From Burkholderiales bacterium (lineage in GTDB: Bacteria > Pseudomonadota > Gammaproteobacteria > Burkholderiales > JABEVD01), in the NCBI GenBank assembly GCA_019753155.1, contig JAIELG010000003.1:1524-65523 (forward strand): 64,000 nucleotides of DNA, in the 5' to 3' direction. Below, piece by piece: positions 61,436 through 63,079 of this stretch. The position numbers were made by a program, and so were the translations under genes. The first letter of the stretch is position 1, and every line of letters starts with the position of its first letter. The notes below the pieces were generated by a model. The model was not told the origin of the DNA. It made no database searches and saw only the letters and a list, made by a program, of their open reading frames with translations.

Positions 61436-63079
61436 TTAAGAACGTCCCAAATCCTTCCATTTCTCGCAAGCCCTCGAATACCCCAGCCCGCAACTTTCCC
61501 TGAAGTCCGGCATCGCCCTGCCGTCGTTCAGATGCTGGTGGGCCAGGGCGCGAACGAAATAAGCCTGGGCATACGCGGGATTCAATTCGACAGTCCTGTC
61601 GAGATCGCGGATCGAAAGGTCGTACTTGCGGTCGTAGTAATAGGCAAAACCCCTGTTGTACCAGGCCTGGTAAATCTTCGGACTGATCGCGATCACCCTG
61701 TCGAAATCCCCTACGGCATCAGGATAATGCCCCGTTTGCAGGTTCGCAAGTCCGAGGTTGTAATAAATCCTGTCCACCCCGACGATGCCGCTCCTGCCTT
61801 CCACGAGCCTTGCCGCATCCCCCCACAAAAGAAGGGGGCTCGAAAATGTGACGAGCCTGTCCTTCGCCAGGGGGAAAAGCAGTATGGAAAGCCCCAGCAG
61901 AGCCGGGAAAGCGAATTTCGCCGGAATTCTGGAAAAGATCAGGGGCAACACGGCGAACATCCCGCCGATCCACAGGTAGCTCCGGTACAGGACGAACGAT
62001 TCCTGTATCCTGACCGTCGAGAGCTCGGTCGTGAAGAGCATCCATGGAAACAGCATGCCGAATCCGGCAAGCCCTACTCTCCCACCCTTGAGCAGAAGCC
62101 TGATTGCGATGACGGGATAGATCAGGAACGCGATAAAGCCGAACAACTGCGGCATGGCGAAATAACTCGATGCGAACGGCTCTCTCATGTCGACCGACAT
62201 GAGGGAAGGATTCGGAAAAATCCAGAGCAGAAGGTATTTGAAAAAAAGCAGGCATTGGGTCAATATGCTCATGGGATAGGCGTTCACGGCCTCGATCTTC
62301 TCCGACTCCACCATCGAAGCGCCGTAGATTTCGTAGGGCGCGCCCAGTACGCCTTTCGCCTTCATGACGACGAAAATGCCGATGACGGCAAAAAGCAGGA
62401 AAGGCAGCCAGAGCTGCTTCAGCCATTTCAGGGAAGGTTTCTGCAGCAGGAAGGTGAGTGCAAGCGCGACCGCCGGGAACATGACCGCATGCTCTTTCGA
62501 GAACACCGCAAGAAAATAGAACAGGGCCGAGAGGGGAAACCATGCGCTTTTCTTCCCTGCCACGCCTTCCATGTAGGCGAAGAGCATCAGGAAGCCAAAA
62601 AAAGTCGCCATGAGGGTGGTACGCTGAATGAGATAGCCTGCCGCATAAACGGACACCGGATCGAGCGCAAACACGATGGCGGCGAAAAAAGCGAGCCAGT
62701 CGCAGGAGATCCCGCTCGTCTCATCCTTCAAAACGATGATGAAAAGGCGCCTCAGGAAAAAAAACAGGACAAGAGCGGTGGCAAAATGCAGCAGCATGTT
62801 CCCCATCCTGAACCAGATCAGCAGGGGACCGAACAGCTTGTATGTCCATCCGAGAGAAGCATAGGCGAACCACCTCAAATCGAAATTGAACATCGATTCG
62901 CCGTATCGCTGAACAATCTTCCCGTCGAAAAAATTATAATCGTCGAAAACCAGCGGACTCCACAGGAACTTCCCGTACAGCGCGTCGACCGCGAGAAAAA
63001 GGAACAGGGCGAGGGCGAAAAAAGGCGTTTTTCCCTTGAGCGGGGCTTCGAGACTGAAAGAGGGTTTGCCGGATAACAT
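61436..63079 (-). CDS. polytopic GT-C-like membrane protein with C-terminal TPR repeats (TMTC/PMT_2-TPR architecture)
   Basis: 547 aa with about 10 or more TM segments. An acidic motif PLVFDDYNFF lies directly after TM1. The C-terminus carries about 3 TPRs (YYNLGLANLQTGHYPDAVGDFDRVIAISP..., AWYNRGFAYYYDRKYDLSIRDLDRTVELNP..., AYFVRALAHQHL...). Confidence 0.6.
   Translation of the reverse strand: MLSGKPSFSLEAPLKGKTPFFALALFLFLAVDALYGKFLWSPLVFDDYNFFDGKIVQRYGESMFNFDLRWFAYASLGWTYKLFGPLLIWFRMGNMLLHFATALVLFFFLRRLFIIVLKDETSGISCDWLAFFAAIVFALDPVSVYAAGYLIQRTTLMATFFGFLMLFAYMEGVAGKKSAWFPLSALFYFLAVFSKEHAVMFPAVALALTFLLQKPSLKWLKQLWLPFLLFAVIGIFVVMKAKGVLGAPYEIYGASMVESEKIEAVNAYPMSILTQCLLFFKYLLLWIFPNPSLMSVDMREPFASSYFAMPQLFGFIAFLIYPVIAIRLLLKGGRVGLAGFGMLFPWMLFTTELSTVRIQESFVLYRSYLWIGGMFAVLPLIFSRIPAKFAFPALLGLSILLFPLAKDRLVTFSSPLLLWGDAARLVEGRSGIVGVDRIYYNLGLANLQTGHYPDAVGDFDRVIAISPKIYQAWYNRGFAYYYDRKYDLSIRDLDRTVELNPAYAQAYFVRALAHQHLNDGRAMPDFRESCGLGYSRACEKWKDLGRS

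Follow-up and report, generated by a model that had tools for sequence, protein, structure and literature searches.

A TfpW-like GT-C/TPR membrane protein encoded beside two type IV pilins: a predicted pilin O-glycosyltransferase of a separate, TMTC-like subfamily

TfpW, the pilin D-arabinofuranosyl transferase of Pseudomonas aeruginosa/paraeruginosa group IV strains (Pa5196, PA7), is a protein of 646 aa with 11 predicted transmembrane (TM) helices and a periplasmic C-terminal tetratricopeptide repeat (TPR) domain; it is needed for pilin glycosylation, and the DDx motif in its periplasmic loop 1 is essential (bioRxiv 10.1101/2020.04.19.049825). The tfpW gene lies immediately after pilA and homologues follow pilA in several genera, the published ones being 30-47% identical; the D-arabinofuranose (D-Araf) pathway is unlinked to pilA in PA7 (bioRxiv 10.1101/2020.04.19.049825). 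A pilin gene, a Rho-independent terminator and an accessory gene form a cassette known from Pseudomonas and other genera (PMC11841053). Pilin glycosylation alters pilus assembly, surface properties and phage susceptibility and, in the literature found, experiments on pilin glycosylation by GT-C glycosyltransferases are those on the TfpW system of one rare Pseudomonas lineage. Here, a stretch of 64,000 nucleotides from a Burkholderiales bacterium (the 64-kb window) was analyzed, in which a gene for a GT-C/TPR membrane protein stands beside two type IV pilin genes. This gene probably encodes an inner-membrane GT-C enzyme that O-glycosylates the adjacent upstream pilins using a polyprenyl-phosphate sugar, as the functional counterpart of TfpW. 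The protein is best read as a TfpW-like, TMTC-like pilin O-glycosyltransferase of a separate subfamily. The concept is not new, given the TfpW precedent; the separate subfamily and its spread to many lineages are new.

The features of the window that bear on this reading are the gene, the domains and conserved motifs of its product, and the two pilins.

61436..63079, minus strand: GT-C/TPR membrane protein gene, an open reading frame (ORF) with more than 1700 homologues and a full-length AlphaFold model
61790..63079, minus strand: membrane GT-C domain, aa 1-430, about 11 TM helices (domain-only AlphaFold model and Foldseek)
61442..61777, minus strand: C-terminal domain of three TPRs and a capping helix, aa 435-546 (Pfam TPR_1, TPR_2, TPR_16 and TPR_11, and the model)
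62939..62947, minus strand: F45-D46-D47, putative catalytic acidic pair in the predicted periplasmic loop 1; invariant in 46 homologues, aligns with W39-D40-D41 of TfpW and TMTC motif M1
62489..62497, minus strand: K195-E196-H197, putative counterpart of TMTC M4 (KE(T/Q)xxT: phosphate and metal binding); K195 invariant, E196 and H197 at least 90% conserved, aligns with SKEL of TfpW
62189..62191, minus strand: D297 in the loop after Y282-x6-P289, putative counterpart of TMTC M5 (DW); Y282, W286, P289, M294 and D297 invariant
61982..62011, minus strand: R357-I-Q-E360-S-F-V-L-Y365-R366, putative counterpart of TMTC M7 (ERxxY, lipid-phosphate binding); R357, Q359, E360, F362, V363, Y365 and R366 invariant
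63280..63729, minus strand: pilin 2, type IVa prepilin of 149 aa, candidate acceptor (Pfam Pilin 3e-14 and N_methyl 1e-8)
63822..64000, minus strand: pilin 1, 3' part, leaving the window at its edge, candidate acceptor (type IV pilin on the same strand)

The ORF listing gave exactly these coordinates for the GT-C/TPR gene, with a product of 547 aa. An earlier reading made from the letters of the window without database searches (hereafter the sequence-only reading) had described a polytopic protein with an FDD motif after the first TM helix and three C-terminal TPRs, and the ORF, the model, the alignment of 46 homologues and Pfam all agree with this description. The full-length AlphaFold model, built on a 46-sequence alignment, reached a pLDDT of 89 and a pTM of 0.89; its first predicted TM helix spans residues 18-38, so that F45-D46-D47 comes after it. 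The TPR region extends over aa 437-520 according to Pfam (TPR_1/TPR_2, E ~1e-11), and in the model aa 435-546 form three pairs of helices with a capping helix after them. Pfam and NCBIfam scans of the whole protein matched the TPRs only, and the membrane domain (aa 1-430) gave zero matches against PDB sequences, either by single-sequence phmmer or by profile search. Foldseek with the whole model was swamped by TPR proteins (OGT, designed TPRs), the only ones returned, and the membrane domain was therefore re-modelled alone (residues 1-430, pLDDT 83). With this second model, the top 24 matches in the PDB were all GT-C enzymes (PglB, STT3, EmbA/B/C, ArnT, Pmt1/2, Pmt4), with a probability of ~1, E values from 1e-3 to 1e-1 and TM-scores of 0.4-0.5. 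Below these ranks, the high-probability matches were more GT-C-type membrane proteins, unrelated transporters appearing at low probability only. Hence, the GT-C fold that the sequence-only reading had expected of the membrane domain is supported by predicted structure, though not by sequence, and the FDD motif does sit at the usual site of GT-C catalytic acidic residues. A GT-C fold combined with a periplasmic TPR domain is, in our estimation, highly likely. The topology was drawn from the model helices and from the positively charged loops 176-177, 213-221, 331-335 and 383-388; it would comprise 11 membrane crossings, with the N-terminus in the cytoplasm and with loop 1 and the C-terminal TPR domain in the periplasm. 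C530 and C538, located in the last TPR and the capping helix, are invariant among the homologues, which would fit a periplasmic location and a disulfide within the TPR domain.

Conservation was measured across 46 homologues of 43-73% identity. The residues F45, D46, D47, R69, N94, H98, P141, R153, K195, Y282, W286, P289, D297, P345, R357, Q359, E360, Y365 and R366 are invariant. Since FDD is among them, it is a conserved motif and not a chance tripeptide. The most conserved peptide, the R357-R366 stretch, was picked for the genome scan. The eukaryotic TMTC1-4 O-mannosyltransferases have the same domain order as the window protein, i.e., about 11 TM helices followed by TPRs, which are lumenal in TMTC; they differ from it in carrying 8-10 TPRs instead of three, and the donor of the window protein cannot be dolichyl-P-mannose. 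One homologue (P0107) carries the JGI label 'protein O-mannosyl-transferase'. Seven motifs with ligand-binding roles have been published for TMTC (PMC7801869), M1 to M7 (DD, SHKSYRP, RxD, KE(T/Q)xxT, DW, PxxP and ERxxY), and counterparts of M1, M4, M5 and M7 in the window protein would be the loop-1 DD, the loop-3 K-E, the loop-4 acidic residue and the loop-5 E..Y/R motif. By pattern, and not by alignment to TMTC sequences, M1 is complete; M4 keeps its K-E, M5 its D and M7 its E/Y/R, and M2, M3 and M6 are kept in part, through R69, R153 and P345 alone, respectively. The equivalence of D297 to TMTC M5 and to the YX6PF region of TfpW is one of position and pattern only, with no statistical support. 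The TMTC segment between TM7 and TM8, Pfam DUF1736 (PF08409), matched neither the window protein at E<=0.1 nor any of 18 family members at E<=10. Pfam PMT_2 (PF13231) left the window protein unmatched and was found in one of the 18 family members (E 1.9e-4); the homologue P0102 carries a precomputed PMT_2 match. The likeness to TMTC and to PMT_2-TPR proteins claimed by the sequence-only reading has partial support, in the architecture and in the pattern of M1, M4 K-E, M5 D and M7 E/Y/R, but not in a Pfam PMT_2 or DUF1736 match. With ArnT (GT83), PMT (GT39), PglB/STT3 (GT66) and Emb (GT53), the window protein has in common the fold of its membrane domain and the place of the acidic residues in loop 1. 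Unlike these enzymes, it has a TPR domain, and its sequence similarity to them is not significant, no PDB sequence or profile match being obtained.

The comparison with TfpW needed its sequence, which was found via the NadC allele of PA7 (the NadC of locus L093 is the PA7 allele) and then via distinct neighbourhoods, leading to the loci L103 and L106. Both have the order pilA (156 aa), a 639-aa ORF, TfpX (FimB family, 244 aa) and nadC.

L103, 7786-9705: TfpW of P. paraeruginosa, 639 aa (pilA-TfpW-TfpX-nadC order; VWDD; YX6PFX7P)

The 639-aa protein of L103 shows VWDD at residues 38-41 and the YX6PFX7P motif, as YLLQSFLPFYSISPLHP, at residue 281, and on these sequence features it is TfpW. BLASTP of the window protein against it gave an E value of 7e-5, with 23% identity over 203 residues. 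The comparison of the family profile with TfpW by hhalign reached a probability of 96.3% and an E value of 2e-9 over 181 columns (query 29-215, TfpW 22-212), the DD, N..., HP..V, R and SKE positions being in register; E. coli ArnT, used as control, remained at a probability of 0.13, which is not significant. The test for full-length similarity failed, the alignment covering residues ~22-212 only, and neither the TPR region nor the latter half of the membrane domain is significantly similar to TfpW. Judged by sequence, the window protein and TfpW are remote homologues over the N-terminal catalytic half and not beyond. The window protein is an architectural and positional equivalent of TfpW, outside the TfpW family in the published sense of 30-47% identity.

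The equivalence comprises a polytopic GT-C membrane domain with a loop-1 DD (VWDD in TfpW, VFDD in the window protein), a C-terminal TPR-type domain, smaller than that of TfpW and predicted on the periplasmic side, and a gene placed downstream of a pilin gene on the same strand, in a pilin-accessory cassette. Unlike TfpW, the window protein has 547 aa instead of 639-646 aa and canonical Pfam TPRs, TfpW being without Pfam match in the precomputed tables. The proline-rich YX6PFX7P motif of periplasmic loop 4, published as a chain-length motif, is cut to Y-x6-P, the window protein reading Y282-LLLWIF-P289-N-PSLMSVD-M. No TfpX/FimB-like gene lies downstream in the window or on L088, a 99%-identical contig, and instead of Pseudomonas it is uncultured Betaproteobacteria and methanotrophs that serve as hosts. 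The sequence-only reading had taken TfpW for a plain GT-C and had proposed a distinct pilin-glycosylation system. Neither claim can be kept: published TfpW, whose gene follows pilA, already joins a GT-C domain and its DDx in loop 1 to a periplasmic TPR domain at the C-terminus (bioRxiv 10.1101/2020.04.19.049825), and the remote homology measured above adds to this. A role specific to D-Araf was rejected as unsupported: the chain-length motif is not conserved, and D-Araf pathway genes (DprE1/DprE2, phosphoribosyltransferase, GtrA-like) were not seen in the 64-kb window, the latter being a weak point since the pathway is unlinked to pilA in PA7 too.

Some minor observations concern TfpW itself. 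The N-terminal motifs SYLRP, HPALVE, GRFD and SKE of TfpW (L103 7786-9705) look more TMTC-like than those of the window protein. The cluster names of 10 TfpW-sized family members (636-664 aa) in the representative search were uninformative. In P. paraeruginosa CP109657 (L107 7364-10587), a pilin of 155 aa is accompanied by a 459-aa ORF, a 185-aa ORF and a weak FimB-like 250-aa ORF. The match of the 459-aa ORF (29 bits) falls on the N-terminal GT-C half, where that of TfpW falls too, and, as 459 and 185 aa together approximate the length of TfpW, this locus may hold a divergent or split tfpW allele.

Pilin linkage was then examined in 80 loci sampled from the genomes of GTDB species, with identities of 41-73%; they belong to Gallionellaceae, Nitrosomonadales, Methylophilaceae, Burkholderiales and Methylococcaceae, with Methylobacter and Crenothrix among the latter. 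In neighbour clustering, no other gene was conserved nearly as often as a pilin: it is present in 53 of the 80 loci and, in 52 of these, stands upstream on the same strand, with a median gap of 204 bp. A GAF/REC-PilB gene (19/80) and a GAF-HD-GYP gene (17/80) came next, and no sugar-biosynthesis gene was conserved among the neighbours of the 80 loci. Linkage was scored in loci with at least 900 bp upstream, a linked locus having a same-strand prepilin gene within 1.3 kb. Under this definition, 49 of 74 loci are pilin-linked overall, as are 48 of 68 short forms (~550 aa) and none of five long forms (640-770 aa, with extra TPRs). The sequence-only reading was to fall if homologues were never linked to pilins, which this sample contradicts. 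In the clade of the window protein, six of seven members are linked and the seventh has its pilin 2 kb upstream; four other multi-member clades are wholly linked (7/7, 4/4, 4/4 and 2/2 scorable loci), as are seven single-locus clusters, and two clades are wholly unlinked (8/8 and 6/6 scorable loci). The linkage is seen amid unrelated flanks in Gallionellaceae, Nitrosomonadales, Methylophilaceae and Methylococcaceae. As the flanking genes differ by lineage (in the window dnaE and a PEBP gene, in Methylobacter gatB, Sel1 and suhB), pilin and enzyme travel together as a module. A tblastn search against plasmids gave zero matches.

The two pilins lie upstream on the same strand, and both are Ser/Thr-rich, as the sequence-only reading had stated; the strings that it quoted, GGTTTTAPTVVMTPTLNATT and SGPTPTNEISTYS, are present. 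Pilin 2 has no cysteine and contains 33 Ser/Thr among 144 residues. Pilin 1, which is complete on L088, has 156 aa with Pfam Pilin and N_methyl matches, and displays Thr-rich stretches and a C-terminal Cys...Cys loop. The enzyme gene had been placed directly downstream of the pilins; this is right as to the strand, but a 200-bp spacer, which holds a small ORF of 45-63 aa, lies between pilin 2 and the GT-C/TPR gene. Two features complete the layout of the locus.

63769..63795, minus strand: GC-rich hairpin with a 10-12 bp stem followed by a T-rich tail, intrinsic terminator or attenuator-like, after pilin 1
63084..63275, minus strand: small ORF lying between pilin 2 and the enzyme gene, 45 aa from ATG 63221 or 63 aa from TTG (gene-called, 45 aa, on near-identical contigs)

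Across the homologous loci, a terminator-like hairpin under strict criteria (at least 8 bp of stem plus a T-rich tail) was found in the spacer between pilin and enzyme genes in 33 of 45 cases, against 1.4 expected from shuffles, and begins a median of 23 nt past the pilin stop codon. The hairpin layout of these loci is that of the Pseudomonas-type pilin-accessory cassette. In the window, the hairpin search found none in the spacer between pilin 2 and the enzyme gene. The small ORF of this spacer reads MLMVDMHDAGTTLSKLVERTLSDGLVIVTADRAFEQYGVDLIRIG in its 45-aa form. It has no match in a Pfam scan and only a far sub-threshold one in NCBIfam, to the unrelated GntC guanitoxin family (E 0.024, 13.6 bits; cut-off 415 bits). 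A role as functional partner was rejected because the ORF is missing in close relatives, whose spacers measure 64-88 bp, and it is probably an insertion remnant outside the mechanism. By eye, it resembles the remnant of a toxin-antitoxin fusion, with an antitoxin-like N-terminus and a PIN-toxin-like C-terminus.

For substrate, donor, sugar identity, topology and the roles of individual residues, we infer the following scheme. A sugar would be built on polyprenyl (undecaprenyl) monophosphate in the cytoplasm and then flipped to the membrane's periplasmic face. The domain of about 11 TM helices would bind the lipid-phosphate-sugar via K195/E196 in loop 3, D297 in loop 4 and R357/E360/Y365/R366 in loop 5, while D46 and D47 in loop 1 would act on the acceptor hydroxyl. 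The three periplasmic TPRs may hold the globular head of the pilin prior to assembly, while its N-terminal helix still keeps the pilin fixed in the inner membrane, and Ser/Thr residues of this head would receive the sugar. The terminator hairpin after the pilin gene would keep the expression of the enzyme far below that of the pilin. As regards the donor, the analogy of the phosphate-binding motifs with those of TMTC, PMT and ArnT suggests a monophosphate-linked monosaccharide rather than an oligosaccharide on undecaprenyl pyrophosphate (Und-PP). Oligosaccharides linked to Und-PP are transferred by TfpO/PilO and PglL, which are likewise pilin-modifying membrane enzymes, TfpO being encoded directly after pilA; a pilin gene with a Wzy_C gene behind it is seen in P. 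paraeruginosa at L093 and L100. The window protein is unrelated to that family: membership among the Wzy_C O-oligosaccharyltransferases was rejected, as no Wzy_C (PF04932) match was obtained and TfpO scores -3.8 bits against the family profile.

Several results weigh against pilin glycosylation as the function of this gene. About one third of the homologues, including two whole clades and all the long forms, are without a pilin link, which implies that the family as a whole has other substrates. In the window, the hairpin follows pilin 1 and not pilin 2, which is itself parted from the enzyme gene by the 200-bp spacer with its ORF remnant. Genes for the donor sugar (DprE1/E2, a GtrB/ArnC-type synthase, a flippase) do not lie beside the cassette and were recognized as such neither in the window nor among the conserved neighbours. 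The likeness to TfpW is limited to the N-terminal ~200 residues at 23% identity and, at database scale, hmmsearch scores TfpW with 30 bits (E 0.02), so that more than 37,000 cluster representatives are closer to the family than TfpW. Besides, the likeness of the upstream pilins of the window to the group IV pilin that goes with TfpW is confined to the generic N-terminal helix. Pilin modification by this family is a prediction.

These points raise the question of the substrate. The enzyme may be an active GT-C whose main substrates are other periplasmic or surface proteins, within a general O-glycosylation of TMTC/PMT type in which pilins would be one substrate or mere neighbours. This is in line with the size of the family: the window protein has more than 1700 homologues in a database clustered at 90%, and the number of cluster representatives found with the membrane-domain profile rises from 465 (E<=1e-30) to 9052 (E<=1e-10) and 37047 (E<=1e-3). 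It is also in line with the several clades and the long forms that are never pilin-linked and with the several paralogues of a single metagenome-assembled genome (MAG; L046, L048, L062). However, the clade of the window protein and most short-form clades keep the pilin-hairpin-GT cassette across contexts, which would be difficult to account for if enzyme and pilin were not functionally connected, and we regard a broader substrate range as unlikely for the window protein. The never-linked short-form clade consists of L037, L043, L054, L058, L066, L068, L070 and L081. The long-form paralogues have many more TPRs and are never pilin-linked (0/5); the loci noted in this connection are L046, L048 and L062, then L005/L006, and L045, L052 and L082, of which the first three come from one Gallionellaceae MAG, which thus has at least three copies of the family. 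In a Deltaproteobacteria MAG (L091 1851-5971), two family members of 715 and 656 aa stand in tandem (profile E 6e-83 and 3e-101), with no pilin near.

The acceptor might also not be a protein: the group taken from the lipid carrier, a sugar or another one, would then pass to a molecule such as lipid A/lipopolysaccharide (LPS), as with ArnT, or an exopolysaccharide. ArnT and the Emb enzymes are indeed among the structural matches, and a large polysaccharide cluster occupies ~1-22 kb of the same window; but this cluster is 40 kb off, no polysaccharide or LPS gene is found among the conserved neighbours and the comparison of the family profile with ArnT falls short of significance. Both the TPR domain and the pilin cassette speak for a protein as acceptor, like that of TfpW and TMTC, and a non-protein acceptor is improbable. 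A non-catalytic role as pilin accessory or assembly factor, i.e., a membrane-anchored TPR scaffold of the TfpY/FimB or PilF/PilW type, is more improbable still, for although pilin cassettes often encode non-enzymatic accessory proteins (PMC11841053) and PilW and Tgl are among the NCBIfam matches to the TPRs, these two matches are far below threshold and concern TPR repeats only, and the GT-C metal-, phosphate- and acceptor-binding residues are invariant in the family, which argues for retained catalysis.

A separate and only remotely related GT-C/TPR subfamily thus fills the position of TfpW in pilin-terminator-enzyme cassettes of environmental Beta- and Gammaproteobacteria. The cassette is present in dozens of species of iron-, ammonia- and methane-oxidizing Proteobacteria, among them the cultured Methylobacter tundripaludum SV96 (L029), Crenothrix sp. 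D3 and Ca. Ferrigenium, which hints at GT-C-type pilin glycosylation reaching far beyond a single pathogen. A plausible substrate is now proposed, as a prediction, for one branch of a huge uncharacterised family resembling the human TMTC O-mannosyltransferases. More tentatively, and with more doubt than belief, the pilin-linked clades could be the first substrate assignment for the large TMTC-like GT-C/TPR family as such (more than 9000 representatives at E<=1e-10). The latter would then perform a widespread periplasmic protein O-glycosylation on lipid-monophosphate sugars, the TPRs of each paralogue reading one folded substrate, here a pilin, with a sugar other than D-arabinofuranose. If this were true, the family would offer a tractable bacterial model for substrate choice of the TMTC type.

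Downstream of the GT-C/TPR gene, the window continues with a pilus gene.

59175..61370, minus strand: PilB-type pilus ATPase with an N-terminal receiver domain (REC-MshEN-T2SSE; Pfam and NCBIfam), 65 bp downstream of the GT-C/TPR gene

On L088, the gene order is PilT-like ATPase, GAF-HD-GYP protein, pilin 1, pilin 2, 45-aa ORF, GT-C/TPR gene, REC-PilB, PEBP-family gene and dnaE. The pilus extension ATPases near these cassettes carry sensory domains, REC-MshEN-T2SSE in the window and GAF-MshEN-T2SSE in relatives (also L003 1278-3668 and L088 258-3013), and upstream of the cassettes lie a GAF-HD-GYP phosphodiesterase and a PilT-like ATPase. The sensory domains of the ATPases and the GAF-HD-GYP neighbour suggest that piliation is under cyclic di-GMP or phosphorelay control.

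Further observations were made at the Pseudomonas loci. In PA7 (CP000744, CP029093; L102 and L105, 7071 onward), an integrase and phage-like genes come right after nadC and part it from the pilin cassette. The P. aeruginosa PilB alleles (L093-L099) differ by up to ~12% and track the pilin group: the alleles at 89-90% pair with TfpO (group I) cassettes, and a 567-aa allele at 94% pairs with a FimB-type cassette (TfpZ-like, 245 aa). Hence, the variable region seems to reach into pilB. In a search seeded with TfpZ, TfpX did not surface.

Elsewhere in the window, the polysaccharide cluster (24-22000) encodes GT2, GT4 and WbsX glycosyltransferases, a Wzx-like flippase, an epimerase/dehydratase, an AsnB-like amidotransferase, a PLP decarboxylase, a polysaccharide deacetylase, an acyltransferase_3 protein and a 934-aa all-TPR protein (18851-21655). 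Judged by eye, the cluster looks like an exopolysaccharide locus of the PEP-CTERM/exosortase type; it lies 40 kb from the GT-C/TPR gene. Four ORFs are without a Pfam match at E<=1e-5, two inside this cluster (5105-7468, minus strand, 787 aa; 8548-9699, minus strand, 383 aa) and two further ones (22703-24118, plus strand, 471 aa; 47779-48672, plus strand, 297 aa). Housekeeping functions are represented by a LonB/LonC-like AAA protease (16428-18815, minus strand) and by an HslVU-type pair of a proteasome-subunit protein and an AAA_2 ATPase (48976-50830, minus strand).

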